Positions 27,771 to 50,448 are shown, counted from the stretch's first letter. The stretch: DNA of 64,000 bases from Escherichia coli (GCF_013122565.1 NZ_CP053258.1), one strand, 5' to 3'. A program made the numbers and translations. The notes: generated by a model from the letters alone, not told the origin.

Positions 27771-27781
27771 GGAAAGGAACA

Positions 27782-29781: not shown

Positions 29782-29786
29782 TCCCC

Positions 29787-30426: not shown

Positions 30427-30927
30427 ATGAATATGAAGACCATTGAAGATGTATTTATTCACCTGCTTTCAGATACCTACAGCGCAGAAAAACAATTAAC
30501 CCGTGCACTGGCAAAACTCGCTAGAGCAACATCAAACGAAAAATTAAGTCAGGCTTTTCATGCGCACCTCGAGGAAACTCATGGACAGATTGAACGAATT
30601 GATCAAGTTGTGGAATCTGAATCGAACCTGAAAATTAAGCGCATGAAATGTGTGGCAATGGAAGGTCTCATTGAAGAAGCTAATGAGGTCATCGAAAGCA
30701 CCGAGAAAAACGAAGTGCGTGATGCCGCACTGATTGCCGCTGCACAGAAAGTCGAGCACTATGAGATCGCCAGTTACGGGACCTTAGCGACGCTGGCTGA
30801 ACAATTAGGTTACCGTAAAGCAGCTAAACTTCTGAAAGAAACTCTTGAAGAAGAAAAGGCTACCGACATCAAACTGACTGATCTGGCCCTTAATAACGTA
30901 AATAAGAAAGCCGAAAATAAAGCCTGA
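30427..30927 (+). CDS. yciF: Ferritin-like DUF892-family stress protein
   Basis: Start at MNMKTIEDV (166 aa); helical ferritin-like sequence; first of the yciF-yciE pair. Confidence 0.88.
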   Translation: MNMKTIEDVFIHLLSDTYSAEKQLTRALAKLARATSNEKLSQAFHAHLEETHGQIERIDQVVESESNLKIKRMKCVAMEGLIEEANEVIESTEKNEVRDAALIAAAQKVEHYEIASYGTLATLAEQLGYRKAAKLLKETLEEEKATDIKLTDLALNNVNKKAENKA

Positions 30928-30972
30928 AATATGAACTTTAACTTTTAGTCATTTTATAAAGAGGACATTTTC

Positions 30973-31479
30973 ATGAATCGTATTGAACATTATCATGACT
31001 GGTTACGTGACGCCCACGCAATGGAAAAGCAAGCCGAATCAATGCTTGAATCCATGGCCAGCCGTATAGATAATTATCCTGAACTACGCGCTCGTATCGA
31101 ACAACATCTTAGTGAAACCAAAAACCAGATTGTTCAACTGGAAACTATTCTTGATCGTAATGACATTTCACGTTCAGTCATTAAAGATTCCATGAGTAAA
31201 ATGGCTGCGCTTGGGCAGTCAATCGGTGGTATCTTCCCTTCTGATGAAATAGTTAAAGGCTCTATTAGCGGATATGTCTTCGAGCAATTTGAAATCGCCT
31301 GTTACACCTCACTATTAGCAGCAGCAAAAAATGCCGGTGATACAGCTTCAATTCCAACCATCGAAGCGATTTTAAATGAGGAAAAGCAAATGGCCGACTG
31401 GCTGATTCAGCATATTCCGCAAACAACTGAGAAATTTTTAATTCGCTCTGAAACTGAAGGCGTAGAAGCGAAGAAATAA
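30973..31479 (+). CDS. yciE: Ferritin-like DUF892-family stress protein
   Basis: 168 aa, paralogous in character to yciF. Confidence 0.88.
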   Translation: MNRIEHYHDWLRDAHAMEKQAESMLESMASRIDNYPELRARIEQHLSETKNQIVQLETILDRNDISRSVIKDSMSKMAALGQSIGGIFPSDEIVKGSISGYVFEQFEIACYTSLLAAAKNAGDTASIPTIEAILNEEKQMADWLIQHIPQTTEKFLIRSETEGVEAKK

Positions 31480-31503
31480 TACCCTTTATGCCATGTCCTT
31501 ATT

Positions 31504-31530
31504 GACCCCGTATATTACGGGGTCGTTTTT
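31504..31530 (+). terminator. Intrinsic terminator after yciE
   Basis: gaccccgta-tat-tacggggtc followed by GTTTTT. Confidence 0.65.
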
Positions 31531-31538
31531 GTGCGGAA

Positions 31539-32177
31539 TTAAAAACGATATCCTGCTGAGAACATAAACACCCACGGATCGAGGCGTACGCTATCATGTT
31601 GCTGTGCACCGCCCAGCTTATAATTGGCGGTGGTATCGATATCCATGTACCAGACTGACATGTTAACCAACCAGTCACGGTTAATCAGATAATCAACCCC
31701 CACCTGCCCGGCAGCTCCCCAGGAATCTTTCAGACTGAGATCGGAAAGCCCCGCCTCTTTGCCATGATCGTTAAATCCATTATCAAAGAAGGTGGTGTAG
31801 TTAATACCTGCCCCAACGTAAGGACGGAATTTGCTGCTGGCATCACCAAAATACCACTGCGCCATCAGTGTTGGCGGCAGATGATGAACGGTTGCAATAT
31901 CGCCGGTCGCCCGGGTGCCGATTTTATGGCGGAACGGCGTCGCTGCCAGTAATTCCACACCAATGTTGTCGGTCGCCATATAAGTAAACGTCAAGCCCAG
32001 TTGCGTGTTATTGGTCACGCTGAATCCACCCAGACTTCCTAACGTACCACCAGCACCTTCTGTTGGACGTACGGTTGCAGACCCTGCACGCATAAAAAAT
32101 TCGCCTGCTTCATGCGCATAGGCACTGCCAGAGAGAAGAGTTGTTACTGCCAAAGCCGCCACTGTTAACTTTTTCAT
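31539..32177 (-). CDS. ompW: Outer-membrane protein W
   Basis: 212 aa; signal peptide ending AYA, beta-barrel alternation, C-terminal aromatic residue. Confidence 0.93.
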   Translation of the reverse strand: MKKLTVAALAVTTLLSGSAYAHEAGEFFMRAGSATVRPTEGAGGTLGSLGGFSVTNNTQLGLTFTYMATDNIGVELLAATPFRHKIGTRATGDIATVHHLPPTLMAQWYFGDASSKFRPYVGAGINYTTFFDNGFNDHGKEAGLSDLSLKDSWGAAGQVGVDYLINRDWLVNMSVWYMDIDTTANYKLGGAQQHDSVRLDPWVFMFSAGYRF

Positions 32178-32533
32178 ATCCGCTCCGTCGTTATGGTTAT
32201 AAAAACGTGACGAATATACCTACATTGGAGTAACAAATGATCCTACATAGATCACATTACATATGATAATTCACCCTTTATTGATCTGGATTAATTTAGA
32301 AGTTGTATTGAAAATCCTGGTTAATGTGATTTAAATCAATTTTTAAATATTTTCGCTACGCAAATATTAACTCGCTCGCCACTTGCCGCGGTTCGCCCAC
32401 GCCTGAAGGCCAGCAATTACCTCCGCTTTACAAAGATATGCTTTTCCATACAAGACCTGATGCTGCCACCCGAGGCTTAACCAGGGTACAATTGCCCGCT
32501 AATTAACACCTGCATAAAACTCAAGGAGAGTGC

Positions 32534-33277
32534 ATGTCTATCACGGCGCAGTCCGTATACCGTGACACCGGAAATTTCTTCCGTAATCAATTTATGACCA
32601 TTCTGTTGGTATCGTTGCTATGTGCGTTTATCACAGTGGTGTTAGGGCATGTTTTCTCACCCAGTGATGCACAGCTTGCGCAGCTCAATGACGGCGTGCC
32701 CGTTAGCGGCAGTAGTGGGTTGTTCGACCTGGTTCAGAATATGTCACCGGAACAGCAACAAATTTTGCTGCAGGCTTCAGCGGCGTCCACTTTTTCAGGA
32801 TTAATCGGTAACGCCATTCTCGCCGGAGGCGTAATATTAATTATCCAGCTGGTGTCTGCGGGTCAGAGAGTCAGTGCGCTGCGAGCTATTGGTGCCAGTG
32901 CGCCGATATTGCCAAAGTTATTTATTCTGATTTTTCTGACTACCCTTTTAGTACAGATTGGCATCATGCTGGTGGTCGTTCCGGGAATTATCATGGCCAT
33001 TTTACTGGCTCTGGCACCGGTGATGTTGGTACAGGACAAAATGGGCATTTTTGCCTCGATGCGTAGCAGTATGCGACTGACATGGGCGAATATGCGTCTG
33101 GTGGCGCCCGCAGTACTGAGCTGGTTGCTGGCAAAAACACTGTTGCTGCTTTTTGCCTCTTCTTTTGCCGCATTAACCCCGGAAATTGGTGCCGTACTGG
33201 CGAACACCTTGAGCAACCTGATCTCAGCCGTATTGCTCATCTATCTGTTCCGTCTGTATATGTTGATTCGCCAATAA
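32534..33277 (+). CDS. yciC: UPF0259-family inner-membrane protein
   Basis: 247 aa polytopic membrane protein. Confidence 0.85.
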
Positions 33278-33306
33278 CCTTAAGCATTTGATTACGGAAT
33301 CGTAAA

Positions 33307-33846
33307 ATGAAGCAGTTTCTTGATTTTTTACCGCTGGTTGTCTTTTTCGCGTTTTACAAAATTTATGACATCTATGCGGCTACTGCGGCGCTGATCGTCG
33401 CCACGGCGATTGTGCTTATCTATAGCTGGGTTCGCTTTCGTAAGGTTGAGAAGATGGCCCTGATCACTTTTGTTCTGGTGGTCGTCTTCGGTGGCTTGAC
33501 GCTGTTCTTCCACAATGATGAGTTTATTAAATGGAAGGTTACAGTCATTTATGCTCTGTTTGCGGGAGCCCTGTTAGTCAGCCAATGGGTGATGAAAAAG
33601 CCGCTAATTCAGCGGATGCTGGGTAAAGAACTCACGCTGCCGCAACCGGTATGGTCGAAGCTAAATCTGGCCTGGGCTGTTTTCTTTATCCTTTGCGGTC
33701 TGGCAAACATCTACATCGCATTCTGGCTGCCGCAAAATATTTGGGTCAACTTTAAAGTCTTTGGCCTGACCGCCCTTACCTTAATCTTCACATTGTTAAG
33801 CGGTATCTATATCTACCGCCACATGCCGCAGGAAGATAAATCCTAA
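33307..33846 (+). CDS. yciB: Inner-membrane protein YciB (intracellular septation protein family)
   Basis: 179 aa, five predicted TM helices. Confidence 0.88.
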
Positions 33847-33950
33847 CCAGACTGCCAGTCCTTCGGGGCTGGCGCTGTATCTCCTCTGTTCTCCTCAGGA
33901 AAATCATAGTAGCATCGCGCCTGTGATTTTCCTTTTAAGTCGGTTTTACC

Positions 33951-34349
33951 ATGTCTACAACACATAACGTCCCTCAGGGCGATCTTGTTTTACGTACTTT
34001 AGCCATGCCCGCCGATACCAATGCCAATGGTGACATCTTTGGTGGTTGGTTAATGTCACAAATGGATATTGGCGGCGCTATTCTGGCGAAAGAAATTGCC
34101 CACGGTCGCGTAGTGACTGTGCGGGTTGAAGGAATGACTTTCTTACGGCCGGTTGCGGTCGGCGATGTGGTGTGCTGCTATGCACGCTGTGTCCAGAAAG
34201 GGACGACATCGGTCAGCATTAATATTGAAGTGTGGGTGAAAAAAGTAGCGTCTGAACCAATCGGGCAACGCTATAAAGCGACAGAAGCATTATTTAAGTA
34301 TGTCGCGGTTGATCCTGAAGGAAAACCTCGCGCCTTACCTGTTGAGTAA
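33951..34349 (+). CDS. yciA: Acyl-CoA thioesterase (hotdog fold)
   Basis: 132 aa. Confidence 0.88.
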   Translation: MSTTHNVPQGDLVLRTLAMPADTNANGDIFGGWLMSQMDIGGAILAKEIAHGRVVTVRVEGMTFLRPVAVGDVVCCYARCVQKGTTSVSINIEVWVKKVASEPIGQRYKATEALFKYVAVDPEGKPRALPVE

Positions 34350-34354
34350 TAATC

Positions 34355-34378
34355 AAAAGCCTCCGGTCGGAGGCTTTT
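34355..34378. terminator. Bidirectional hairpin between convergent yciA and tonB
   Basis: aaaagcctcc-ggtc-ggaggctttt, perfect 10-bp stem. Confidence 0.65.
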
Positions 34379-34388
34379 GACTTTCTGC

Positions 34389-35108
34389 TTACTGAATTTC
34401 GGTGGTGCCGTTAATTTTAAACAGGATATTCACCACAATCCCACTGCCTGGCTTACCCGGCTCATAACGCCATCTGCGCATCGCATTTTTCACCTCACGC
34501 TCAAACATGTTCGCAGGCTTGGCTGAGAGGATTTGCACGTTATCCACGCGACCATCCGGCGTGACATCAAATTTAACTTTAACCTGCCCTTCAATGCGCA
34601 ATGCCTGTGCTCGTGCCGGATACTGCGGCTGATTACGGCTTAATGCGCGTGGTCCTGAAGCCACACTGGTAACCGGCTTGCTGGTTGCAGCCGTTGCCGT
34701 ACTTGATGTAGGGCGCGCGGGTGCCGTATTTTCAAACGGTGATGCCGGACGCGACTCTACGGGTTTGACATCGCGTTTTGGCTGCTCCTGTACCTTTTTC
34801 ACCGGCTTCGGTTTTGGCTTAGGTTTCGGCTTCGGCTTTTCAATGACCACCGGTGCTTCTTTTGGCGGTTCAGGAATCGGCTCAGGTTCCGGTTCTGGCT
34901 CTACCACCGGCTCCGGTGGCGGCTGAACGGCTTGTGGCGGTTCGAGATCAGCAGGCGCAACCATCGTAACAGAAATCGGCTGCGCAGGCGCAGGTAGTTC
35001 AATAACCTGATGTACCGAGGTATAGAGCAGACCCGCCACAACAGCACCATGAATGCAGACCGAAAGTAACGTCGGCCAGGGGAAGCGGCGAGGTAAATCA
35101 AGGGTCAT
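34389..35108 (-). CDS. tonB: Energy transducer TonB
   Basis: Start at internal Met giving 239 aa [11 protein letters not shown]...; (EP)n and (KP)n proline-rich spacer; C-terminal TonB domain. Confidence 0.93.
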
Positions 35109-35331
35109 TGAAGTCATAATCATTTCAGCAGAAAAACCAGGCCTCGATTTTAAATGCAAATAGCAATCATATTCAATAAGGCAAGACGATCAGGATCAGT
35201 GAAAATGTCATTTTTGGCGTAATTGACCTTACTTTATGCATGGTCTTAACAAAGACATCATCTTTCCGTTGCAGATCTTCGCCCTTTCAAATAACGTACT
35301 TTACAACTTTCCCGAACAAGGAGTTGTGCCC

Positions 35332-35628
35332 GTGTTGTATGTTATTTACGCTCAAGACAAAGCTGATAGCCTCGAAAAACGCCTTTCCGTTCGTCCGGCA
35401 CATTTAGCACGTTTACAGTTACTGCATGATGAAGGTCGTTTGTTGACAGCTGGTCCAATGCCAGCGGTAGACAGTAACGATCCAGGGGCTGCGGGATTTA
35501 CTGGCTCAACCGTTATTGCTGAATTTGAATCGCTGGAAGCAGCTCAGGCCTGGGCCGATGCTGACCCGTACGTAGCGGCAGGTGTCTATGAACACGTTTC
35601 AGTGAAACCATTTAAGAAAGTGTTCTGA
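35332..35628 (+). CDS. yciI: YciI-like small protein (98 aa)
   Basis: GTG start preceded by SD aaggag gives (M)[17 protein letters not shown]...; the ORF track extends further upstream. Confidence 0.85.
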
Positions 35629-35927
35629 GTAGAGATCCAATATTTAAGGGCACGGTTTTTGCAACCGTGTTCTTGTTTGGCCTTTCCTTATAGCCGGTCA
35701 GTGCATTCACCACCACAAGCAGATAATAACTTTATCTGTATTTCTTTATATGATGTGAGCATATTCAGGAAAAATGACCTTTCCTGAGGTACAGTTGCTC
35801 GCTCAAAACCTTTGATTACTGCGGATAAAGTCATCTACTATTGTTTAACACATTCACGCGCTGCATGTATGTTCGGAAAATGTGCACGCTAAGATAATTA
35901 AACAAAATTGTGGTTACAGAGGTATCA

Positions 35928-37181
35928 GTGAGTCACTGGGCTACATTCAAACAAACAGCAACAAATTTATGGGTGACCCTACGGCACGACATGCTCGCGC
36001 TGGCCGTCTTTTTAAATGGATTGCTTATTTTTAAAACAATCTATGGTATGTCGGTCAATTTGCTTGATATTTTCCATATTAAAGCATTTTCAGAGCTGGA
36101 TCTCTCCTTGCTGGCAAACGCCCCACTATTTATGCTCGGCGTATTTCTTGTCCTGAACTCCATTGGCTTACTGTTCCGGGCAAAGCTCGCATGGGCAATC
36201 AGTATCATTTTGTTGTTGATAGCGCTAATTTACACCCTGCATTTTTATCCGTGGCTGAAATTCAGTATTGGATTTTGCATTTTTACGCTGGTGTTTTTGC
36301 TGATACTGCGCAAAGACTTCTCCCACAGTAGCGCCGCAGCCGGGACAATTTTCGCATTTATTAGTTTCACGACGTTACTGTTTTACTCCACCTACGGTGC
36401 GCTTTATTTAAGCGAAGGTTTTAATCCGCGAATAGAAAGTTTGATGACCGCGTTCTATTTTTCAATAGAAACCATGTCAACCGTCGGCTATGGCGATATT
36501 GTCCCTGTTTCTGAGTCAGCACGATTGTTCACTATTTCGGTCATTATTTCCGGCATTACCGTTTTTGCCACCTCTATGACCTCAATTTTTGGTCCGCTTA
36601 TCCGCGGGGGATTCAACAAACTTGTAAAAGGAAACAATCATACAATGCATCGTAAAGATCATTTTATTGTTTGCGGGCATTCGATTCTCGCCATCAATAC
36701 GATTCTGCAACTGAATCAACGCGGACAAAACGTAACGGTTATCAGCAACTTGCCTGAAGATGATATCAAGCAACTTGAGCAACGCTTAGGCGATAACGCT
36801 GATGTTATCCCCGGTGACAGTAATGACAGTTCAGTATTAAAGAAAGCGGGAATCGATCGTTGCCGGGCCATTCTGGCGCTGAGTGATAACGATGCAGATA
36901 ACGCGTTTGTTGTACTCTCGGCAAAAGATATGAGCAGTGATGTTAAAACAGTTCTCGCCGTCAGTGATAGCAAAAACCTGAATAAGATTAAGATGGTACA
37001 TCCGGATATCATTCTCTCACCGCAACTGTTTGGCAGCGAAATTCTGGCGCGAGTTTTAAATGGTGAAGAGATTAATAATGATATGCTCGTTTCAATGTTG
37101 TTGAACTCCGGTCATGGCATTTTCAGCGATAACGATGAACAAGAAACGAAAGCTGACAGTAAAGAATCGGCGCAAAAATAG
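35928..37181 (+). CDS. kch: Six-TM K+ channel homologue with cytoplasmic RCK domain
   Basis: GTG start giving (M)SHWATFKQT... (417 aa); selectivity filter TVGYGD in TMSTVGYGDIVP; C-terminal Rossmann-type RCK domain (HFIVCGHS...). Confidence 0.9.
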   Translation: MSHWATFKQTATNLWVTLRHDMLALAVFLNGLLIFKTIYGMSVNLLDIFHIKAFSELDLSLLANAPLFMLGVFLVLNSIGLLFRAKLAWAISIILLLIALIYTLHFYPWLKFSIGFCIFTLVFLLILRKDFSHSSAAAGTIFAFISFTTLLFYSTYGALYLSEGFNPRIESLMTAFYFSIETMSTVGYGDIVPVSESARLFTISVIISGITVFATSMTSIFGPLIRGGFNKLVKGNNHTMHRKDHFIVCGHSILAINTILQLNQRGQNVTVISNLPEDDIKQLEQRLGDNADVIPGDSNDSSVLKKAGIDRCRAILALSDNDADNAFVVLSAKDMSSDVKTVLAVSDSKNLNKIKMVHPDIILSPQLFGSEILARVLNGEEINNDMLVSMLLNSGHGIFSDNDEQETKADSKESAQK

Positions 37182-37235
37182 AGTTTAAAGACGGAAGAGT
37201 AAACTTATTGGGCACCGCAATGGTGCCCAGTACAT

Positions 37236-37409
37236 TTAGATATTGTAGATCGCAAACAATAACGAGTTACGCTGTTTGTTTAGAATGCACTTCCTGATGC
37301 TGTGGATACGCATATTTCGGCGCGATTGCCCCTCAAGCCAACGCGATTTACGTCGGCTAGCCTGACGCTGCATGCGCCAGCGCCCCACTTCCGTTCTACT
37401 CCGCTTCAT
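37236..37409 (-). CDS. yciY: Small Arg-rich protein (57 aa)
   Basis: Internal Met of the 94-aa ORF gives MKRSRTEVGRWRMQRQASRRKSRWLEGQSRRNMRIHSIRK...; assignment from memory of a small gene between kch and cls. Confidence 0.5.
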   Translation of the reverse strand: MKRSRTEVGRWRMQRQASRRKSRWLEGQSRRNMRIHSIRKCILNKQRNSLLFAIYNI

Positions 37410-37551
37410 GTTAACTACTCTATGCAATAACAGAATGGTCATTATACCCCCGCCCCCGACGCTGACCAGTGCTTTTCCCGCGTTTTTATTTGCCAGATGA
37501 ATCCATATGCGTAAACTCATAACAATGCGCTTTCAAAAGGATTTCTAATCT

Positions 37552-39376
<1,825 letters not shown>

Positions 39377-39387
39377 CGCTTGCAATC

Positions 39388-39413
39388 GGATGTGACGCAG
39401 CTGCGTCACATCC
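39388..39413. terminator. Perfect 26-bp palindrome between convergent yciU and the channel ORF
   Basis: ggatgtgacgcag / ctgcgtcacatcc, exact reverse complements; starts 12 nt after the yciU stop and contains the TGA stop of the minus-strand channel ORF; no T-run on either side, so terminator function is inferred. Confidence 0.5.
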
Positions 39414-40275
39414 GCTCTTCATTTTCCACATCTACCTTTTCCCTCCCCAGTTCATTGCCACAAATACGACAATACTTCGCATCCTGTGCATGATTTTGGG
39501 TATTGCATTTAGGACAACAGAGAAGTTTTTTAGTCTGTTCAAGTTCGCTGGTGAGTTGCGCAGTAATAATCCCCGTCGGAATTGCAATGACTGAGTAGCC
39601 AATTAAGATTAATACTGAGGCCACCATCCTTCCTGCCTCTGTATGCGGCGTAATATCCCCATATCCAACGGTAGTCACAGTCACTATCGCCCAGTAAACC
39701 GCTGTACCCAACGAGTTAAATCCGTTTGATGCGCCTTCTATAGCGTACATTAACGCCCCAGCGACGATCATCACAATTGCAATAAATGCATAAAAAAGAA
39801 TCAACTGATGTCGGGCATTTTTTATCGCCCGCCATAAACTGTTTAAGGCAGGCATAAAGCGAAGCAGGCGCAAAATTCGCAACGCGCGAATAGCTCTCAT
39901 CGCTCGCCAGGCAAATAAATAAGTAAAACCAATTTCAGGCCATAGCCACATAACATACAGCGGCAAAATGGTGGTCAGATCGATAATTCCCCAAAAGCTA
40001 AAAACATAACTTACCGGATTCGGCCAGCTTAATATCCGCAGGAAATACTCGATGGTGAAAATTAAGGTAAAGAAGAGTTCCACCCAGACAAAGATATGCC
40101 ATTCGTCGTAGGTTAACTGAAATTGCGATCCAATACCGGATTCTATGAAAACAACGCCAACACTTAACAATGCGAGAAAACCAAACAGCGCCTCGCATCG
40201 TCTACCGGTTTTTGTATGCCGATCAAAAAGAAAATGATAAAACCGCTGACGATAGCCTGAAAGTTGTCCTGTCAC
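39406..40275 (-). CDS. Kv-type voltage-gated K+ channel homologue (6 TM, charged S4, TVGYGD filter) with C-terminal Cys4 zinc-ribbon tail
   Basis: 289 aa; GTG start 5 nt after SD GGGAGG; S4 segment RAMRAIRALRILRLLRF with Arg at every third position; acidic countercharges in S2 and S3; pore AIVTVTTVGYGDITP; tail CCPKC...CRIC; not remembered at this position in K-12. Confidence 0.8.
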   Translation of the reverse strand: MTGQLSGYRQRFYHFLFDRHTKTGRRCEALFGFLALLSVGVVFIESGIGSQFQLTYDEWHIFVWVELFFTLIFTIEYFLRILSWPNPVSYVFSFWGIIDLTTILPLYVMWLWPEIGFTYLFAWRAMRAIRALRILRLLRFMPALNSLWRAIKNARHQLILFYAFIAIVMIVAGALMYAIEGASNGFNSLGTAVYWAIVTVTTVGYGDITPHTEAGRMVASVLILIGYSVIAIPTGIITAQLTSELEQTKKLLCCPKCNTQNHAQDAKYCRICGNELGREKVDVENEERM

Positions 40276-40286
40276 CTGCGCCTCCC

Positions 40287-40317
40287 ATGAAAAAGGGCCG
40301 GCAATTGACCAGCCCTT
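40287..40317 (-). terminator. Intrinsic terminator after oppF
   Basis: Minus-strand hairpin AAGGGCTGG-TCAATTG-CCGGCCCTT followed by TTTTT, 8 nt after the oppF stop and directly abutting the SD of the channel ORF. Confidence 0.6.
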
Positions 40318-40324
40318 AACCGCT

Positions 40325-41329
40325 TTATAACGGATCGACTTTCAGGCAAGAAACGGCGTGTCTGAAACTCCCCTCCAGCACAGGACGTGTTTTGGCACAC
40401 TCCGGACCGGCAATCGGGCAACGGGTACGGAAAACACAACCGGAAGGCGGGTTGATCGGCGACGGTAATTCCCCTTCCAGTAACTGGATGGTTTTGTTCT
40501 TCTCCAGATCCGGATCAGGTATGGGGACTGCCGACATCAATGCCCGGGTGTAAGGATGTAGTGGATTGTGGTAGACCTCATCATAGGTCCCCAGTTCTAC
40601 CGCATGGCCGAGATACATCACTAACACACGATCGGAAATGTGTTTTACCACGGCCAGGTCGTGAGCGATAAAAATTAATGACAATCCCATCTCACGTTGC
40701 AACTGCTGGAGCAGGTTGACCACCTGCGCCTGAATTGACACGTCCAGCGCCGACACCGGCTCATCACAGATAATCAGCTTCGGTTCAAGAATAAGAGCAC
40801 GAGCAATCCCGATACGCTGGCACTGCCCACCGGAAAATTCATGCGGATAGCGGTTAATCAGGTTAGGCAATAACCCGACTTTCAGCATCATCGCCTTCAC
40901 GCGCTCGCGAACTTCCTGGCGTGACATTTTCGGATGATAGGTACGCAGCGGTTCAGCGATAATCTCACCGATGGTCATACGCGGGTTTAGTGATGCTAAC
41001 GGATCCTGGAAAATCATCTGAATATCACTGCGAACGGCACGCCATTCATCGGGCTTCATGCCCAGCAACTCTTTACCTAACCAAGCAACATGACCGTCGG
41101 TCGCCTTGACCAAACCGATGATGGCGCGAGCAAAGGTGGACTTACCGCATCCCGATTCCCCTACCACACCTAATGTTTCCCCTTCATACAGGCGAAGAGT
41201 GACACCATCGACGGCTTTGAGCGTTTTCGGCGGTTGCCAGAACCACTGCTTGCCATCTTTGATTTCAAAGTGCACTTTTAGATCGGCGATTTCGAGGAGG
41301 ACTTTTCTTCCTTCGGTTACAGCATTCAT
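40325..41329 (-). CDS. oppF: Oligopeptide ABC transporter ATP-binding protein
   Basis: 334 aa; Walker A GESGCGKST; ABC signature and C-terminal oligopeptide-type extension. Confidence 0.95.
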   Translation of the reverse strand: MNAVTEGRKVLLEIADLKVHFEIKDGKQWFWQPPKTLKAVDGVTLRLYEGETLGVVGESGCGKSTFARAIIGLVKATDGHVAWLGKELLGMKPDEWRAVRSDIQMIFQDPLASLNPRMTIGEIIAEPLRTYHPKMSRQEVRERVKAMMLKVGLLPNLINRYPHEFSGGQCQRIGIARALILEPKLIICDEPVSALDVSIQAQVVNLLQQLQREMGLSLIFIAHDLAVVKHISDRVLVMYLGHAVELGTYDEVYHNPLHPYTRALMSAVPIPDPDLEKNKTIQLLEGELPSPINPPSGCVFRTRCPIAGPECAKTRPVLEGSFRHAVSCLKVDPL

Positions 41330-42339
41330 AACAGTTCCTCCACCGGTTTAAAGCAAGCACGCAGACGGCCAGGCGTAAACTCTTCCAGTGGCGGTGCGCT
41401 ACTACAAATTTCCATCGCATGTGGACAACGTGGCTGGAACGGGCAACCTTTCGGTAATCGCAGCAAGTTTGGTGGATTACCCGGGATGGTCAACATTGTT
41501 TCACCTTCCGCATCGAGACGCGGCACCGCGTTGAGCAAACCGATAGAATAAGGATGAACGGGTTGATAAAAGACATCGCGCGCGTTGCCATATTCCATCG
41601 TGCGCCCGGCATACATTACCAGCACTTTGTCGCAGATCCCCGCCACCACGCCAAGATCGTGGGTGATCATTATGATGGCGGTATTAAATTCCCGCTTCAG
41701 TTCATTCAATAGCGTCATGATCTGCGCCTGTACGGTGACGTCCAGCGCAGTAGTGGGTTCATCCGCAATCAGCAGCTTAGGTCGACATAGCAATGCCATC
41801 GCAATCATGACTCGCTGACGCATGCCGCCAGAAAATTCGTGCGGGTACATTTTCATGCGTTTACGCGCTTCCGGCATTTTTACCGCATCGAGCATCCGCA
41901 CCGACTCTTCAAACGCCTCAGCTTTGCTCATGTTCTTATGCAGCATCAGCACTTCCATTAACTGCTCACCGACACGCATATAGGGATTCAACGAAGTCAT
42001 TGGGTCCTGAAAAATCATTGAGATTTGTTCAGCGCGCAGTTTATTGAGTTCATGCTCTGGCAAATTGAGGATTTCACGCCCATTGAAGGTTGCCGAACCG
42101 CCAATACGTCCGTTGGCAGCCAACAGGCCCATCAACGCAAATGCAGTTTGCGATTTACCCGAACCAGACTCACCTACAATGCCCAACGTTTCTCCGGCTC
42201 GTAGGGAAAAATTCAAATCATTGACCGCCGTGACGTCGCCGTCCGGGGTACTAAAGGTGACACGCAAATCTTTCACGTTCAGCAGTGCGTCAGCCTGTTG
42301 TTGTGCGAGCGGCACAGTTGCAGTTTCAATTACGCTCAT
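41326..42339 (-). CDS. oppD: Oligopeptide ABC transporter ATP-binding protein
   Basis: 337 aa; Walker A GESGSGKSQT; overlaps oppF start by 4 nt. Confidence 0.95.
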   Translation of the reverse strand: MSVIETATVPLAQQQADALLNVKDLRVTFSTPDGDVTAVNDLNFSLRAGETLGIVGESGSGKSQTAFALMGLLAANGRIGGSATFNGREILNLPEHELNKLRAEQISMIFQDPMTSLNPYMRVGEQLMEVLMLHKNMSKAEAFEESVRMLDAVKMPEARKRMKMYPHEFSGGMRQRVMIAMALLCRPKLLIADEPTTALDVTVQAQIMTLLNELKREFNTAIIMITHDLGVVAGICDKVLVMYAGRTMEYGNARDVFYQPVHPYSIGLLNAVPRLDAEGETMLTIPGNPPNLLRLPKGCPFQPRCPHAMEICSSAPPLEEFTPGRLRACFKPVEELL

Positions 42340-42350
42340 GGCTGCACTCC

Positions 42351-43259
42351 TTAACGATCTTTCGGGTCGAGGGCATCACGCAAGCCATCGCCGATAAAGT
42401 TGAAACAAAACAGCGTCACCACGAGGAATCCCGCTGGGAACAACAGTAACCATGGAGAGACTTCCATCGAGTTCGCGCCATCACTCAGCAATGCACCCCA
42501 GCTGCTTAACGGCTCTTGCGTACCCAACCCCAGAAAGCTAAGGAAAGATTCAAAGAGGATCATGCTGGGCACCAGAAGTGATGCGTAGACCACCACCACA
42601 CCGAGTACATTCGGCACAATGTGGCGAATAACAATGCCCGACGTCGATACACCGCCAACTTGTGCCGCCTCAATAAACTCTTTGCGCTTCAGACTCAGGG
42701 TTTGCCCACGCACAATACGAGCCATATCCAGCCAGGAAACCATGCCTATCGCCACGAAAATCAGCAGGATGTTTTGACCGAAAAAGGTCACCAGCAAAAT
42801 GACGAAGAACATGAATGGGAAGGAGTTGAGGATTTCCAGCAGACGCATCATTACCGAATCCACTTTACCGCCCAGATAACCGGAAAGCGAACCATAAAGT
42901 GTCCCGACGACCACTGCCACCAGTGCCGCAGCAACACCAACCATGAGTGAGATACGCCCGCCAATCGCAACGCGCACAAGCAGGTCGCGACCGGATGAGT
43001 CAGTACCAAAGTAGTGACCGGACTCCATATCCGGGGCGCTGGACATCATCGCCCAGTCAGTATCATCATAGGCAAACTGCGAAAGCATCGGTGCCAGGAT
43101 TACAAATAACGCGATCAGCACCAGCACTATCAGACTGGCAACGGCCGCACGGTTATGCATAAAACGTCGACGTGCGTCCTGCCACAAGCTGCGCCCTTCG
43201 ACCTCCAGCTTTTCACTGAAATTTTCCAGCGTCTCGCTGTTTTTCTTACTTAACATCAT
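42351..43259 (-). CDS. oppC: Oligopeptide ABC transporter permease
   Basis: 302 aa polytopic permease. Confidence 0.95.
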   Translation of the reverse strand: MMLSKKNSETLENFSEKLEVEGRSLWQDARRRFMHNRAAVASLIVLVLIALFVILAPMLSQFAYDDTDWAMMSSAPDMESGHYFGTDSSGRDLLVRVAIGGRISLMVGVAAALVAVVVGTLYGSLSGYLGGKVDSVMMRLLEILNSFPFMFFVILLVTFFGQNILLIFVAIGMVSWLDMARIVRGQTLSLKRKEFIEAAQVGGVSTSGIVIRHIVPNVLGVVVVYASLLVPSMILFESFLSFLGLGTQEPLSSWGALLSDGANSMEVSPWLLLFPAGFLVVTLFCFNFIGDGLRDALDPKDR

Positions 43260-43273
43260 CGCGAGCTCCAGTA

Positions 43274-44194
43274 TCAGTAACGGATTTTCGGGTCGATAAC
43301 CGCATATAGCACATCGACAATGGCATTAAACAAAATGGTTAACGCGCCAACCAGAATGGTCAGACTTAACACTAAGGAATAGTCACGGTTCAATGCGCCA
43401 TTAACGAACAATTGTCCAATCCCCGGCAAACCATAAATGGTTTCGATGACCATAGAACCGGTAATAATGCCGACAAATGCGGGGCCCATATAGGAGAGCA
43501 CGGGTAACAGAGCAGGTTTTAAAGCGTGGCGTAAAATGATCCGCCGCATAGGTAACCCTTTCGCCCGGGCAGTGCGAATAAAGTTGGAGTGCAATACTTC
43601 AATCATAGAGCCACGGGTAATACGCGCAATACTGGCGATATAGGCGAGTGACAACGCCACCATTGGCAGTATCATGAATTTAAGCGCACCACCATTCCAG
43701 CCACCGCCCGGCAGCCAATGCAAAATGATCGCAAATATCATGACTAATAATGGCGCAACCACAAAACTGGGGATAACAACCCCGGTCATTGCCAGCCCCA
43801 TCACGGTATAGTCCCATTTGGTGTTTTGTTTTAATGCGGCAATAACGCCAGCACTAACACCCAGTATTACCGCAAGGAAAAATGCTGCGGCTCCCAGTTT
43901 GGCAGAAACGGGAAAACTGGATGCAACCAGGTCATTGACCGAATAATCTTTATATTTAAACGATGGACCGAAATCGCCATGCGCCAGTTGTTTCAGGTAG
44001 CTGAAATACTGTGTCATGATCGGATCATTAAGATGATATTTCGCTTCGATATTGGCCATTACTTCCGGTGGTAAAGTACGTTCGCCGGTAAAAGGGCTTC
44101 CCGGCGCGAGGCGCATCATAAAGAACGAAATAGTAATAAGAATAAATAGCGTCGGAATCGCTTCCAGACAGCGACGTAGAATAAATTTTAACAT
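43274..44194 (-). CDS. oppB: Oligopeptide ABC transporter permease
   Basis: 306 aa polytopic permease. Confidence 0.95.
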   Translation of the reverse strand: MLKFILRRCLEAIPTLFILITISFFMMRLAPGSPFTGERTLPPEVMANIEAKYHLNDPIMTQYFSYLKQLAHGDFGPSFKYKDYSVNDLVASSFPVSAKLGAAAFFLAVILGVSAGVIAALKQNTKWDYTVMGLAMTGVVIPSFVVAPLLVMIFAIILHWLPGGGWNGGALKFMILPMVALSLAYIASIARITRGSMIEVLHSNFIRTARAKGLPMRRIILRHALKPALLPVLSYMGPAFVGIITGSMVIETIYGLPGIGQLFVNGALNRDYSLVLSLTILVGALTILFNAIVDVLYAVIDPKIRY

Positions 44195-44279
44195 TGCCCT
44201 ACCTTCTGGCCTGTGCCTTCTGTAATGCGATAAAAATCAGACACCGTGGAGCAGGACACTCCTGCCCCACGTATTGCCA

Positions 44280-45911
44280 TTAGTGCTTCACAATGTACAT
44301 ATTCCGGGTGTAGGTATTATCCAGCGGATCTTTGCCGGTATAGCCACCAACCCACGGTTTCACCAGACGCGCATTCACGTAGTAATAAACAGGAACAATG
44401 GCCGAATCCTTATCCAGCTGTTGTTCTGCTTTAGTGTACAGAGCTGTGCGCTGCGCCTCGTCAGTCACTTTCAGCGTTTCCGCCATAATGCTGTCAAAGG
44501 CCGGGCTCTTATAATGCGCGGTATTCATCGAGCTGTTCGACAGCATGGTGTTCAGGAAGGAAGTTGGTTCGTTATAGTCTGCACACCAGCCTGCACGGGC
44601 CACATCAAAAGTGCCCTGATGACGGGTGTCGAGGAACGTTTTCCACTCCTGGTTAACCAGTTTGACGTTTACACCAATGTTTTTCTTCCACAATGAAGAG
44701 GCAGCAATCGCCAGCTTTTTATGCAGATCGGAGGTGTTATACAACAGGTTGATGGTCAACGGTTTGTCTGCGGTATAACCCGCTTCAGCCAGCAGTTTTT
44801 TTGCTTCTTCGTTACGTTTTTCCTGGCTCCAGCCAAACCATTCCGGCTGAGTCAATTTTGCGCCATCAGTATACGGTGGAGTGTAACCATAGGCGGGCAT
44901 GTCGCCCTGTGCTTTCACTTTATTAACAATGATATCGCGGTCCATACCCAGTTTCAGTGCGGTACGCACACGCACATCGTTGAATGGCGGTTTCTGGTTG
45001 TTAATTTCGTAATAGTAAGTGCACAGGTATGGATCAACGTGAACTTCGTCCGGGATCTCTTTTTTCAGCTTCTGGAACAATTCGATCGGCATATTGTTAT
45101 ACGTCATGTCGATTTCACCACTACGGTAGCGGTTGACATCAGTAACTTCAGAAGCAATAGGCAAATAGGTTACCTGGTTAATAACGGTTTTCGCGTTGTT
45201 CCAGTAGGTCGGGCTGCGTTCAAGAACGATTCGTTCGTTTACGACCCAATCTTTTAAGGTATAGGCACCGTTGGTGACGATATTACCAGGCTGGGTCCAT
45301 TTTTCGCCGAATTTCTCGATAGCGGCTTTTGGCACCGGTGAAGTTGATGGGTGAACAAGTAATTTATAGAAGTACGGAACGGGTTCACTTAAGGTGACTT
45401 CTAATGTGTGATCATCAATAGCTTTCACGCCGAGATCGGTAATCGGTTTTTTCCCTTCAAGAATTTCATCAATACCGGCGATATGCCCATATTGCAGATA
45501 ACTGGCATACGGAGAAGCGGTGTTTGGATCAACAGAACGTTGCCAGCTATACACAAAGTCTTGTGCTGTGACTGGCGTGCCATCAGACCATTTCGCATCT
45601 TTACGCAAATGGAAGGTCCAGACTTTCGCGTCTTTATTATCCCAGGATTCAGCGACGCCAGGTGCCGGATGACCGTCAAGGTCGCTGACCAGTAAGCCTT
45701 CAAACAGGTCCCGGCTGATATTAGACTCCGGCACACCTTCAATTTTGTGCGGATCTAATGACTGAACTTCTGAACCATTGTTACGTACCAGCGTTTGTTT
45801 TTCCGCCAGTGTGACGCCTGCGGGTACATCAGCTGCCAGCGCGACATTCCCTGCCATTAGCGCAGCCAGAACGCCAGCTGCTACTAAACTTCTCTTGGTG
45901 ATGTTGGTCAT
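44280..45911 (-). CDS. oppA: Periplasmic oligopeptide-binding protein
   Basis: Start at internal Met giving 543 aa MTNITKRSLVAAGVLAALMAGNVALA... (signal peptide); family 5 solute-binding protein. Confidence 0.95.
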   Translation of the reverse strand: MTNITKRSLVAAGVLAALMAGNVALAADVPAGVTLAEKQTLVRNNGSEVQSLDPHKIEGVPESNISRDLFEGLLVSDLDGHPAPGVAESWDNKDAKVWTFHLRKDAKWSDGTPVTAQDFVYSWQRSVDPNTASPYASYLQYGHIAGIDEILEGKKPITDLGVKAIDDHTLEVTLSEPVPYFYKLLVHPSTSPVPKAAIEKFGEKWTQPGNIVTNGAYTLKDWVVNERIVLERSPTYWNNAKTVINQVTYLPIASEVTDVNRYRSGEIDMTYNNMPIELFQKLKKEIPDEVHVDPYLCTYYYEINNQKPPFNDVRVRTALKLGMDRDIIVNKVKAQGDMPAYGYTPPYTDGAKLTQPEWFGWSQEKRNEEAKKLLAEAGYTADKPLTINLLYNTSDLHKKLAIAASSLWKKNIGVNVKLVNQEWKTFLDTRHQGTFDVARAGWCADYNEPTSFLNTMLSNSSMNTAHYKSPAFDSIMAETLKVTDEAQRTALYTKAEQQLDKDSAIVPVYYYVNARLVKPWVGGYTGKDPLDNTYTRNMYIVKH

Positions 45912-46647
45912 TGTTTTTTGGACTCCCTCATTATAATTACTGGTAGTAACCAGCATGTGTAATCCCGGATTGGGACCCTGTACAGGCTCGGAGACTTTCT
46001 GCTGTCAGGTTACTTTATCGTTACGGATTGCTATCACCGACTTTATTTATTCTGGTGATTCAGACGATCACCTTATGTCGATTCGTACTGTGTCTCCCCT
46101 GTCGAGACACATTATTCTTTCGCGACGCTCTTTAATTGTTAATTATTCTCATTACCAATAAAAATCGTCTGGCGGTTGCCCGGAAAGTACCAAATGCGCT
46201 TCTTGCTCGCCAATACATTTTGCAAAATTGTTAAGCAATTCTCTTTTATTGACCGCAGCAGAATCTATAGCTTGCATCCATGTCTTAACAAACATCTTTC
46301 AATTCAATCAAATAGAGATTGGTTAAGCATGTCTATCTTTTCTGATTACAGTTCCCGTAGTGAAATGCACAATAATTTAACAATTGATTATTATTTAGCA
46401 CTTTCCTCTGCCAAAGGCAGTGGAATTACTAATATCATTTCAATTATTCTTCAGCAAGCCCAGGATTATGATGTGGTGAAAATAACATGATGGTGAGGAG
46501 AAGCAGTTAAGGAAATCCTTATAACTAACTGTAATTTGAGAAGAATATTTTTACCTATTCCTTTTGCTTTTGATAACTGCGTAGGAACAAAGTAAAAATA
46601 ATGACGAAGTAAACGGAGCATGGCGGCTCCGTTTCATTTGAAAGGAA

Positions 46648-47295
46648 TTAATTAAGCAGGCCGGGGAAAATCCCCTTAATACCAGTAACGATAAATTCAA
46701 TCCCCAATGCCATCAGCAATAGCCCCATAATACGCGTAATCACGTTGATGCCGGTCTGGCGTAAAACCCGTACCAGCCACGGTGCCATGCGGAACAATCC
46801 CCAGCAACATAAAGCGAACAACGCAATAGCCACAAAGAAACCAAACAGATAGCTAATGCTGTGATAACGCGTACCCCAGACGATGGTAGAACTGATCGCC
46901 CCTGGCCCCGCCATCAACGGCAACGCCAATGGCACCACACCAATGCTTTCACGTACCGCGGTTTCTGATTTTTCTTGCTTGTTCTGTTTATCCTCACCAA
47001 GCTTGCCGCTGATCATCGACATCGCTATTGTCACCACCAGGATGCCACCGGCGATACGGAATGAATCAATTGATATACCAAAAAGTTGTAGAATCGTGTC
47101 GCCGAGAAAAAGCGAGATCCACAAGATAATGGCCACAGACAGGTTGGCTGTAAGGTTAGTTTTGTTTCGCGCTGCCGCTGTCTGATAACTGGTCATGCTG
47201 ATAAAGACGGGAATAATCCCTACCGGGTTGACCAGCGCAAATAACCCGATGAAAAATTTGAAGTAAACGGGAAAATCAAAAAGGGTCTGAATCAC
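46648..47295 (-). CDS. ychE: MarC-family inner-membrane protein
   Basis: 215 aa, six predicted TM helices. Confidence 0.88.
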   Translation of the reverse strand: MIQTLFDFPVYFKFFIGLFALVNPVGIIPVFISMTSYQTAAARNKTNLTANLSVAIILWISLFLGDTILQLFGISIDSFRIAGGILVVTIAMSMISGKLGEDKQNKQEKSETAVRESIGVVPLALPLMAGPGAISSTIVWGTRYHSISYLFGFFVAIALFALCCWGLFRMAPWLVRVLRQTGINVITRIMGLLLMALGIEFIVTGIKGIFPGLLN

Positions 47296-47772
47296 GGTTA
47301 GCTCCGAAGCAAAAGCCGGATAATGTTAGCCATAAATAAGGTTGAAAAGACGCGCTGACAATACGCCTTTTGACGGCATTTTTCACCTCCTAACTACTTA
47401 AAATTGCTATCATTCGTTATTGTTATCTGGTTGTGCAAAACATGCTAATGTAGCCACCAAATCATACTACAATTTATTAACTGTTAGCTATAATGGCGAA
47501 AAGCGATGCTGAAAGGTGTCAGCTTTGCAAAAATTTGATTTGGATCACGTAATAAGTACCCAGAAGTGAGTAATCTTGCTTACGCCACCAGGAAGTGACG
47601 CATTAGAGATAAATAGCTCTAATGTTTAAACTCTTTTAGTAAATCACAGCGAGTGTGAGCGCGAGTAAGCTTTTGATTTTCATTGGTTAAGCAAATCATC
47701 ACCGCACTGACTATACTCTCGTATTCGAGCAGATGATTTACTAAAAAAGTTTAACATTATCAGGAGAGCATT

Positions 47773-50448
47773 ATGGCTGTTACTAATGTCGCTGAACTTA
47801 ACGCACTCGTAGAGCGTGTAAAAAAAGCCCAGCGTGAATATGCCAGTTTCACTCAAGAGCAAGTAGACAAAATCTTCCGCGCCGCCGCTCTGGCTGCTGC
47901 AGATGCTCGAATCCCACTCGCGAAAATGGCCGTTGCCGAATCCGGCATGGGTATCGTCGAAGATAAAGTGATCAAAAACCACTTTGCTTCTGAATATATC
48001 TACAACGCCTATAAAGATGAAAAAACCTGTGGTGTTCTGTCTGAAGACGACACTTTTGGTACCATCACTATCGCTGAACCAATCGGTATTATTTGCGGTA
48101 TCGTTCCGACCACTAACCCGACTTCAACTGCTATCTTCAAATCGCTGATCAGCCTGAAGACCCGTAACGCCATTATCTTCTCCCCGCACCCGCGTGCAAA
48201 AGATGCAACCAACAAAGCGGCTGATATCGTTCTGCAGGCTGCTATCGCTGCCGGTGCTCCGAAAGATCTGATCGGCTGGATCGATCAACCTTCTGTTGAA
48301 CTGTCTAACGCACTGATGCACCACCCAGACATCAACCTGATCCTCGCGACTGGTGGTCCGGGCATGGTTAAAGCCGCATACAGCTCCGGTAAACCAGCTA
48401 TCGGCGTAGGCGCGGGTAACACTCCGGTTGTTATCGATGAAACTGCTGATATCAAACGTGCAGTTGCATCTGTACTGATGTCCAAAACCTTCGACAACGG
48501 CGTAATCTGTGCTTCTGAACAGTCTGTTGTTGTTGTTGACTCTGTTTATGACGCAGTACGTGAACGTTTTGCAACCCACGGCGGCTATCTGTTGCAGGGT
48601 AAAGAGCTGAAAGCTGTTCAGGATGTTATCCTGAAAAACGGTGCGCTGAACGCGGCTATCGTTGGTCAGCCAGCCTATAAAATTGCTGAACTGGCAGGCT
48701 TCTCTGTACCAGAAAACACCAAGATTCTGATCGGTGAAGTGACCGTTGTTGATGAAAGCGAACCGTTCGCACATGAAAAACTGTCCCCGACTCTGGCAAT
48801 GTACCGTGCTAAAGATTTCGAAGACGCGGTAGAAAAAGCAGAGAAACTGGTTGCTATGGGTGGTATCGGTCATACCTCTTGCCTGTACACTGACCAGGAT
48901 AACCAACCGGCTCGCGTTTCTTACTTCGGTCAGAAAATGAAAACGGCTCGTATCCTGATTAACACCCCGGCTTCTCAGGGTGGTATCGGTGACCTGTATA
49001 ACTTCAAACTCGCACCTTCCCTGACTCTGGGTTGTGGTTCTTGGGGTGGTAACTCCATCTCTGAAAACGTTGGTCCGAAACACCTGATCAACAAGAAAAC
49101 CGTTGCTAAGCGAGCTGAAAACATGTTGTGGCACAAACTTCCGAAATCTATCTACTTCCGCCGTGGCTCCCTGCCAATCGCGCTGGATGAAGTGATTACT
49201 GATGGCCACAAACGTGCGCTCATCGTGACTGACCGCTTCCTGTTCAACAATGGTTATGCTGATCAGATCACTTCCGTACTGAAAGCAGCAGGCGTTGAAA
49301 CTGAAGTCTTCTTCGAAGTAGAAGCGGACCCGACCCTGAGCATCGTTCGTAAAGGTGCAGAACTGGCAAACTCCTTCAAACCAGACGTGATTATCGCGCT
49401 GGGTGGTGGTTCCCCGATGGACGCCGCGAAGATCATGTGGGTTATGTACGAACATCCGGAAACTCACTTCGAAGAGCTGGCGCTGCGCTTTATGGATATC
49501 CGTAAACGTATCTACAAGTTCCCGAAAATGGGCGTGAAAGCGAAAATGATCGCTGTCACCACCACTTCTGGTACAGGTTCTGAAGTCACTCCGTTTGCGG
49601 TTGTAACTGACGACGCTACTGGTCAGAAATATCCGCTGGCAGACTATGCGCTGACTCCGGATATGGCGATTGTCGACGCCAACCTGGTTATGGACATGCC
49701 GAAGTCCCTGTGTGCTTTCGGTGGTCTGGACGCAGTAACTCACGCCATGGAAGCTTATGTTTCTGTACTGGCATCTGAGTTCTCTGATGGTCAGGCTCTG
49801 CAGGCACTGAAACTGCTGAAAGAATATCTGCCAGCGTCCTACCACGAAGGGTCTAAAAATCCGGTAGCGCGTGAACGTGTTCACAGTGCAGCGACTATCG
49901 CGGGTATCGCGTTTGCGAACGCCTTCCTGGGTGTATGTCACTCAATGGCGCACAAACTGGGTTCCCAGTTCCATATTCCGCACGGTCTGGCAAACGCCCT
50001 GCTGATTTGTAACGTTATTCGCTACAACGCGAACGACAACCCGACCAAGCAGACTGCATTCAGCCAGTATGACCGTCCGCAGGCTCGCCGTCGTTATGCT
50101 GAAATTGCTGACCACCTGGGTCTGAGCGCACCGGGCGACCGTACTGCTGCTAAGATCGAGAAACTGCTGGCATGGCTGGAAACGCTGAAAGCTGAACTGG
50201 GTATTCCGAAATCTATCCGTGAAGCTGGCGTTCAGGAAGCAGACTTCCTGGCGAATGTGGATAAACTGTCTGAAGATGCATTCGATGACCAGTGCACTGG
50301 CGCTAACCCGCGTTACCCGCTGATCTCCGAGCTGAAACAGATTCTGCTGGATACCTACTACGGTCGTGATTATGTAGAAGGCGAAACTGCAGCGAAGAAA
50401 GAAGCTGCTCCGGCTAAAGCTGAGAAAAAAGCGAAAAAATCCGCTTAA
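47773..50448 (+). CDS. adhE: Bifunctional acetaldehyde-CoA / alcohol dehydrogenase
   Basis: 891 aa; N-terminal aldehyde dehydrogenase half, C-terminal Fe-alcohol dehydrogenase half, Lys/Ala-rich tail. Confidence 0.97.

Follow-up and report, generated by a model that had tools for sequence, protein, structure and literature searches.

Electrical signalling in bacteria has been studied mainly through two channels that are not of the canonical voltage-gated kind, Kch of Escherichia coli and YugO of Bacillus. Among the small prokaryotic voltage-gated potassium (Kv) channels, KvAP of Aeropyrum pernix opens on depolarisation. Activation by depolarisation has also been described for KvLm of Listeria monocytogenes (PMC2151562). 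For SynK, complementation of K+ uptake in a kdp trk kup triple mutant has been reported (PMC2853561). Here we analyse a 64,000-nucleotide stretch of E. coli DNA (GCF_013122565.1, NZ_CP053258.1; called the window below, with positions counted from its first nucleotide), which carries between oppF and yciU a gene predicted to encode a Kv channel subunit of the Shaker type. Its superfamily and a RefSeq annotation as 'ion transporter' were already known. New are its recognition as a canonical Shaker-type Kv channel at one conserved locus across the Enterobacteriaceae, the near-complete deletion of the gene in E. coli, the short tract that carries it in rare strains and a widespread zinc-ribbon tail. 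We put at about 0.8 the probability of our overall reading, in which an ancestral gene for a Shaker-type, K+-selective voltage-gated channel subunit is expressed by read-through and owes its present distribution in E. coli to a deletion and a recombination tract.

A Shaker-type channel subunit predicted between oppF and yciU

The spacer between the stop codons of yciU (39376) and oppF (40325) measures 948 bp (39377..40324) and holds an open reading frame (ORF) of 289 codons with a GTG start on the minus strand (39406..40275), identified by the ORF list, Pfam and its RefSeq orthologue. A preliminary description of the locus had put the interval at about 950 bp with a 289-codon minus-strand frame and had given yciU and oppF as nearly adjacent in K-12. 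Both statements agree with our measurements: in MG1655 and in a K-12-lineage genome the spacer is 52 bp long and the channel gene is missing. The gene had also been singled out there as the strongest candidate in the window for an accessory or uncharacterised gene. A RefSeq label exists, and no experimental study of this enterobacterial channel was found in open full texts, a coverage outside which most subscription journals lie.

The predicted product is a full-featured Shaker-type Kv subunit with six transmembrane helices (6TM) and without a T1 domain, as judged from sequence matches, the charge set, the filter and the modelled fold. The Pfam search proposed in the preliminary description revealed Ion_trans (PF00520) at 1.2e-31 (residues 30-247), together with Ion_trans_2 at 4.9e-18, and Ion_trans was matched by all 58 aligned diverse relatives. 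Comparison of the single protein with all PDB sequences gave Kv4.2, the Kv1.2-2.1 chimera, Kv2.1, Kv1.3 and Shaker as best matches (1e-23 to 1e-20). A profile of the 58 relatives matched Kv2.1 at 2e-54, and the best 60 chains were all eukaryotic. In NCBIfam the best match was the MVP model (NF040645) with 60.5 bits (1.9e-16) against a curated cut-off of 300. The Kch model (NF007828/PRK10537) reached 51.4 bits against a cut-off of 425, in the pore only, and TrkA_N gave no match. These scores lie far below the cut-offs and the protein is therefore a member of neither the MVP nor the Kch family.

S4 (residues 120-139; 39859..39918, minus strand) reads RAMRAIRALRILRLLR and has arginine (R) at every third position (R124, R127, R130, R133, R136 and R139), giving six basic residues where at least four were looked for. 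In a HMMER alignment to Kv4.2 these six fall on the Shaker positions R1-R6, E66, F73 and E76 correspond to the outer acidic residue, the phenylalanine and the inner glutamate of S2, and D99 corresponds to the aspartate of S3. The constituents of a charge-transfer centre (S2 Phe/Glu, S3 Asp and an outer acidic residue in S2) are all present. Among 20 enterobacterial orthologues R124, R127, R130, R133 and R139 never vary, and residue 136 is either R or lysine (K); E66, F73, E76 and D99 are invariant as well, F73 and D99 also in the 58 relatives. The K+ selectivity filter T202-V-G-Y-G-D207 (39655..39672, minus strand), read in the sequence, is invariant in both alignments, and G226 and P233-T-G235 are invariant in the 20 orthologues. 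Overall, the functional residues are invariant in the 20 orthologues and nearly so across the 58 diverse relatives. The translation thus bears out the hallmarks named in the preliminary description, which were six S4 arginines, acidic countercharges in S2 and S3 and a TVGYGD filter.

The structure prediction proposed there was carried out with AlphaFold2 as a monomer, built on the 58-sequence alignment, and yielded a Kv fold with a mean predicted local distance difference test (pLDDT) score of 88.9. Its helices comprise S1 (22-51), S2 (56-83), S3 (94-111), S4 (120-134), S5 (155-180), the pore helix (189-200) and S6 (213-251). The S4-S5 linker forms a 17-residue helix (137-153) in the monomer model, and the closest folds are those of the domain-swapped Kv1-4 channels. 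A Foldseek search of the PDB listed Kv4.2, Kv3.1, Kv1.2-2.1, Kv1.3, Shaker and Kv2.1 at the top. Their TM-scores were 0.5-0.66 on the length of the query and reached 0.75 when normalised to the target.

Some distant relatives (P0181, P0191 and P0202) display a degenerate filter (...SKLTVMDGGGIE in P0181, GVGYGD in P0202), and P0181 and P0202 keep the CxxC...CxxC tail described below. Their sequences suggest non-conducting or differently selective derivatives of the same clade.

Predicted zinc ribbon in the C-terminal tail

After S6 the protein carries the motif C254-P-K-C257-x11-C269-R-I-C272-G, two CxxC knuckles with the spacing of a zinc ribbon. From cysteine conservation, weak Pfam matches and the model we assign residues 254-276 (CPKC-x11-CRICG; 39448..39516, minus strand) to a four-cysteine zinc ribbon, whose cysteines would bind zinc. 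C254, C257, C269 and C272 are invariant in 58/58 aligned diverse relatives, and the pLDDT over the segment is about 87. Zn_Ribbon_1 matched the window protein weakly (i-Evalue 0.0014) and the best family member at 7.7e-07; DZR matched 41 of the 58 members at E<=0.1 and five at E<=0.001. The conserved ribbon goes beyond the preliminary description, as does the lack of a separate promoter reported below.

When 1.84 billion cluster representatives were searched exhaustively with phmmer, 25,341 relatives were found at E<=1e-3. Among the best 150 cluster representatives at 50% identity, 100 combine a K+ filter with a CxxC-x(10-11)-CxxC tail, and in these 100 the distance from filter to ribbon is 46-142 residues, mostly 49-60. 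Named members of the ribbon family include Planctomycetes and one DPANN archaeon. No solved Kv chain aligned with the ribbon segment when the profile of the 58 relatives was compared with the PDB, and no paper linking a zinc ribbon to a voltage-gated K+ channel was found in open full texts, most subscription journals again lying outside coverage. Because the predicted ribbon sits directly beneath the gate, its place suggests a role in assembly or regulation. A wider reading takes the ribbon, under the S6 bundle crossing, as an unrecognised regulatory module that marks a very large bacterial Kv clade, and the near-fixation of the E. coli deletion as the outcome of selection once Escherichia had gained Kch, one K+ channel taking over the function of the other; we consider this combination unlikely. 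The ribbon could then make voltage gating respond to cytoplasmic redox state, to Zn2+ or to a partner molecule; alternatively, it could stand in for the eukaryotic T1 domain as a tetramerisation device.

An ancestral occupant of the oppF-yciU slot

Orthologues with 63-80% identity are found throughout the Enterobacteriaceae. The arrangement oppABCDF > channel < yciU < cls was identical in every context fetched, namely those of E. albertii, Kluyvera cryocrescens, Raoultella, Citrobacter amalonaticus, Escherichia sp. E1130, E. fergusonii and Klebsiella pneumoniae, and the same slot is occupied in a 4.37-Mb genome (CP057162) whose divergence is at the level of a cryptic clade. Nucleotide identity to the window was 91-92% for the channel gene and 87-94% for the flanking genes in cryptic Escherichia, 75% and 86-90% in E. 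albertii, 74.5% and 82-87% in E. fergusonii, and 70-72% and 79-86% in other genera. The order of lineages is the same for the channel gene and its neighbours, with the channel gene diverging faster. Substitution patterns show purifying selection on the channel gene, the ratio of nonsynonymous to synonymous substitution rates (dN/dS) being 0.07-0.11 against the orthologues and 0.09-0.11 against the closest ones.

Given the same slot across genera, the lineage-ordered divergence, block-type plasmid matches and distant phage matches, the sequence comparisons identify the channel gene as the ancestral, vertically inherited occupant of the oppF-yciU slot. A mobile island would be expected to show an integrase or transposase, direct repeats, a tRNA or att site and a variable locus; the channel gene does not fit this picture, and its locus is constant in the genera examined. 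In line with the preliminary description, which had noticed no transposase, integrase or direct repeats at the borders, the six-frame ORF list contained no transposase or integrase ORF at the channel locus, and a repeat search revealed no meaningful flanking direct repeats, only short two-copy matches at chance level. The slightly low GC content noted there was computed as 43.9% for the channel gene, compared with 51-52% for oppF, oppD and clsA, 49.6% for the whole window and 42.8% for kch.

Carriage by plasmids was rejected, the matches being whole chromosomal blocks (ychE-opp-channel-yciU-cls), apparently captured or misassigned. Carriage by phages was likewise rejected: the matches do not exceed about 30% identity, except for one partial match of 52% that covers 21% of the query. 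PLSDB records with the full block ychE-oppABCDF-channel-yciU-cls-tonB include NZ_CP132641.1 (K. pneumoniae p3), CP101356.1 (Salmonella pIndS104-CTX) and CP125156.1. One such 'plasmid' record has a length of 5.37 Mb, and these block records look like captured chromosomal segments or misassigned replicons.

Distribution in E. coli and the deletion

A megablast search with 38900-40800 against 5,426 complete E. coli genomes detected the flanks in 5,422 genomes and the whole interval in three. A sensitive blastn search with the spacer alone detected the same three in these genomes. The gene is therefore absent from 5,423 of the 5,426 (~99.9%), and the presence/absence comparison by BLASTN suggested in the preliminary description gave no copy in K-12. 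Calling the gene 'extra' or accessory, as was done there, holds for its rarity within E. coli (3/5,426) but not in the sense of an addition, the occupant of the slot being ancestral in the Enterobacteriaceae. The carriers are PT62 and LP5-1 from pigeon, which have records of the same length and are thus probably one clone, and ET201 from frog; each is 99.9% identical to the window spacer.

Among the matches listed, all gene-lacking genomes with intact flanks gave two-piece alignments spanning 1,003-1,005 bp, a net difference of 896 bp from the window. At the K-12 junction the hairpin and T-run behind oppF are kept, and everything that follows is lost up to ~16 nt from the yciU stop. From these alignments, mainstream E. 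coli carries an 896-bp deletion of the ancestral channel gene.

Across the 948 bases, the alleles of the window, PT62, LP5-1 and ET201 show a single difference. The PT62 orthologue (WP_047667023.1, labelled 'ion transporter') has a DNA identity of 99.9%, and its sole difference across the 948-bp spacer lies in codon 284 (39424-39426), which is GAA in the window and TAA in PT62. The window protein consequently has 289 residues compared with 283 in PT62 and ends in ENEERM; another E. coli-labelled orthologue also ends at 283. This extension of six residues falls past the zinc ribbon, where the tail varies in length.

The resident kch gene (35928..37181, plus strand; ORF list and RefSeq), which encodes a known K+ channel with 6TM and RCK parts, lies 2.2 kb from the channel gene. 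Mainstream E. coli has kch and lacks the Kv gene, both are present in E. albertii, cryptic Escherichia and the window, and in Kluyvera, Raoultella, Klebsiella, C. amalonaticus and E. fergusonii the Kv gene is present with no kch between cls and yciI. The two distributions are partly complementary, and one K+ channel may have replaced the other.

A short recombination tract carries the intact allele

The genome of MB53 lacks the channel gene and has the K-12-type junction of 52 bp. Over 36-47 kb PT62 and MB53 share their pattern of single-nucleotide polymorphisms relative to the window, except in one tract (minimal 39139..40838, maximal 38407-40966) inside which the alleles of MB53 are those of K-12. 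Identity to K-12 is 97.1-97.9% in the tract flanks, compared with 98-100% just outside. As the PT62 and MB53 backgrounds match except inside this tract, the polymorphism patterns indicate that in E. coli a homologous-recombination tract of 1.7-2.6 kb determines whether the channel is present or absent. By its degree of divergence, the intact allele is an old one of E. coli-level divergence that has been kept at very low frequency.

Two other histories of the allele were rejected. Recent import from a sampled cryptic Escherichia clade does not agree with the identity of tract and gene to these clades, which is only 89-92%. That an early-branching E. coli lineage kept the gene fails as the whole story: PT62 has been reported to belong to ST6775 and phylogroup B1 (PMC9045152), the similarity is local, and MB53 has the same background without the gene.

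A sliding comparison with PT62 and ET201 gave 99.1-100% identity to the window over ~37-50 kb only; elsewhere the identity is 96-99%, no closer than to K-12. No complete E. coli genome (n=5,426), PT62 and ET201 included, reached 99% identity over positions 1-20000 (best 98.8%), and over 20000-39376 and 40325-60000 none of these genomes attained that value with full coverage. The strain of the window seems to be a lineage or mosaic unrepresented among complete E. coli genomes. Further differences from K-12 lie away from the channel locus. The gene yciQ (DUF2207, ~1.9 kb), found between yciO and rluB in K-12, is absent at 21412-21479 in the window, and likewise from PT62 and ET201, a further polymorphism of gene presence in this region. 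At ~46395, between ychE and oppA, the K-12 alignment breaks at an IS5 element that lies upstream of oppA in MG1655 and is absent from the window. At ~50490-51460, between adhE and tdk, the window resembles an IS4-family transposase (insG, which in K-12 and MB53 is a frameshifted pseudogene), and the alignments to both of these genomes are interrupted there.

Expression signals

The channel gene follows directly downstream of oppF (40325..41329, minus strand; ORF list and RefSeq of homologous loci), the final gene of the oppABCDF operon, on the same strand, and is convergent with yciU (39047..39376, plus strand; ORF list and RefSeq annotation). The oppF terminator (40290..40317, minus strand) consists of a GC-rich hairpin (40295-40317) and a run of five T (40290-40294), with an RNAfold energy of -20.1 kcal/mol. 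A Shine-Dalgarno sequence, GGGAGG (40281..40286, minus strand), was read 5 nt ahead of the GTG, and GAGG or GGAGG stands at the same place in all orthologous loci. The layout of hairpin, T-run, Shine-Dalgarno sequence and start is kept in all seven other loci compared; hairpin and T-run are present in E. fergusonii, E. albertii, cryptic Escherichia, Kluyvera, Raoultella and C. amalonaticus and retained in K-12.

No promoter of its own was detected on the minus strand within 1.1 kb upstream of the gene by a crude consensus scan for sigma-70 sites. Since only 14 nt lie between the T-run and the GTG start and no sigma-70 site was found, low-level transcription of the channel gene most likely reads through the oppF terminator, or else starts at a promoter invisible to a sigma-70 scan. 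Low expression would be plausible for a channel.

Between the convergent channel and yciU genes lies a perfect palindrome of 14+14 nt (39387..39414, 100% complementary), which includes the TGA stop of the channel gene. It was found by the plus-strand terminator scan, has RNAfold energies of -23.6 and -25.1 kcal/mol on the two strands and is likely a bidirectional terminator. An Rfam scan of the spacer for structured RNA returned sub-threshold matches only (naRNA4 with 24 bits, K_chan_RES with 23.4 bits). The K_chan_RES match, to a eukaryotic Kv RNA-editing signal, covers 39555-39669 on the minus strand within the part that encodes S6 (gathering threshold 51 bits, E=0.13); we read it as an echo of coding similarity to eukaryotic Kv genes and not as a functional element.

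Proposed mechanism and alternative explanations

According to the mechanism we propose, the subunit presumably assembles as a homotetramer. In the S1-S4 voltage sensor, the six S4 arginines would slide past the charge-transfer centre formed by F73, E76 and D99, and the helical S4-S5 linker of 17 residues would couple the sensor to the S5-pore-S6 domain with its TVGYGD filter, G226 hinge and P233-T-G235 gate motif. S6 is predicted to run on as a cytoplasmic helix into the four-cysteine ribbon, which would place four ribbons beneath the gate. At a very negative resting potential the channel would be closed. On depolarisation it would open, and K+ efflux would pull the membrane potential toward the K+ equilibrium potential (E_K), restoring a negative potential after a depolarising stress. 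Activation by depolarisation is probable by analogy, the closest solved relatives all being of that type.

Several points weigh against parts of this proposal. The tetramer and its domain swapping are deduced from the linker length of the model and from matching structures. An S4 sequence does not fix polarity; that of the hyperpolarisation-activated archaeal MVP is similar, and in NCBIfam the MVP model scores best, though far under its cut-off. For any one sequence, the zinc ribbon is weakly supported by Pfam. The strong terminator directly upstream could mean that the gene is barely expressed. Finally, the recombination event may have brought the intact allele into the PT62 background or else the deletion into that of MB53.

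An alternative origin, which we consider very unlikely, is that the gene was acquired horizontally as a small accessory island from an unrelated donor by a few E. coli strains. The presence of the gene in only 3/5,426 complete E. coli genomes, its GC content of 43.9%, which is under that of its neighbours, and its movement within E. coli on a short recombination tract common to different backgrounds would fit such an acquisition. However, no fewer than eight other enterobacterial lineages have this gene in the same slot, and this synteny largely refutes an island; divergence from cryptic Escherichia (91-92%) matches that of flanking core genes (89-94%), the upstream terminator has been left in K-12 as a deletion scar, and kch is just as GC-poor. 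Integrase, transposase and flanking direct repeats were not found at the locus, the plasmid copies are chromosomal blocks and the phage matches are distant. It is also conceivable, if extremely improbable, that the gene in E. coli is a decaying relic without function, heading for the loss seen in the rest of the species. The deletion allele is near fixation, a terminator stands directly upstream with no own promoter, and the window allele has a changed stop codon that adds six residues. Against decay, the frame is intact with every family-invariant residue kept, dN/dS against the closest orthologues is ~0.09-0.11, the window, PT62, LP5-1 and ET201 alleles differ by 1 base in 948, and the added residues lie past the zinc ribbon in the tail of variable length.

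The polarity of gating could also be the opposite, with the channel opening on hyperpolarisation like MVP or HCN and taking up K+ when the potential is more negative than E_K. The MVP model is the best NCBIfam match (1.9e-16) and an S4 sequence alone does not set polarity. The resting potential of bacteria is often more negative than E_K, and an inward path for K+ would be physiologically useful. Nevertheless, the MVP match, at 60.5 bits, falls far short of the curated cut-off of 300, among solved structures the nearest in sequence and in fold are the depolarisation-activated Kv1-Kv4 channels with their long helical S4-S5 linker, and HCN-type channels are not among the best 50 Foldseek matches. 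We therefore regard opening on hyperpolarisation as unlikely and prefer an ancestral Shaker-type channel that opens on depolarisation.

Implications

If our reading holds, a full Shaker-style Kv channel is carried by the Enterobacteriaceae as a family, including the pathogen Klebsiella pneumoniae, and was overlooked because the laboratory species E. coli has deleted the gene almost completely. The rare E. coli strains with an intact allele, together with at least one otherwise matching background without it, offer a clean natural knockout: the near-isogenic pair PT62 (gene present) and MB53 (gene absent) would allow a direct test of what a true Kv channel does in an enterobacterium. Because it holds the complete sensor charge set of eukaryotic channels in 289 residues, the protein is also a possible compact model for Kv gating.

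Comparison with known channels

Kch, encoded 2.2 kb away, shares the TVGYGD filter with the window channel and is 42% identical over 77 residues, in the pore only. In contrast to the window channel, Kch has a C-terminal RCK/TrkA_N domain, its translation lacks a visible S4-like series with a basic residue at each third position, and its gene is distributed differently. MVP of Methanocaldococcus (NF040645) is likewise a prokaryotic 6TM voltage-gated K+ channel, but with 60.5 bits against a cut-off of 300 the window channel is not a member of its family, and the polarity of the two is probably opposite. Like the window channel, the prokaryotic Kv channels KvAP and KvLm are small, have a 6TM topology and lack a T1 domain; neither is among the best 60 PDB sequence matches of the window channel, which are all eukaryotic, and to our knowledge neither has a zinc ribbon.

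The eukaryotic Kv1-Kv4 channels (Shaker, Kv1.2, Kv2.1, Kv3.1 and Kv4.2) share with the window channel the 6TM topology, the S4 arginines R1-R6, the charge-transfer centre, the long helical S4-S5 linker seen in the model, TVGYGD and the glycine hinge, although the identity is only 20-28%. The window channel differs from them by the lack of an N-terminal T1 domain, its cytoplasmic N-terminus being ~21 residues long, by a P-T-G gate motif where the eukaryotic channels have P-V-P, and by the predicted C-terminal zinc ribbon, with which no solved Kv chain aligns. This ribbon is similar to the stand-alone bacterial zinc ribbons (PF13240 Zn_Ribbon_1, PF12773 DZR) in its CxxC-x(10-11)-CxxCG pattern and its length of ~23 residues, whereas in the window protein it follows immediately on the S6 gate helix, as a fusion to the C-terminal end of a channel.

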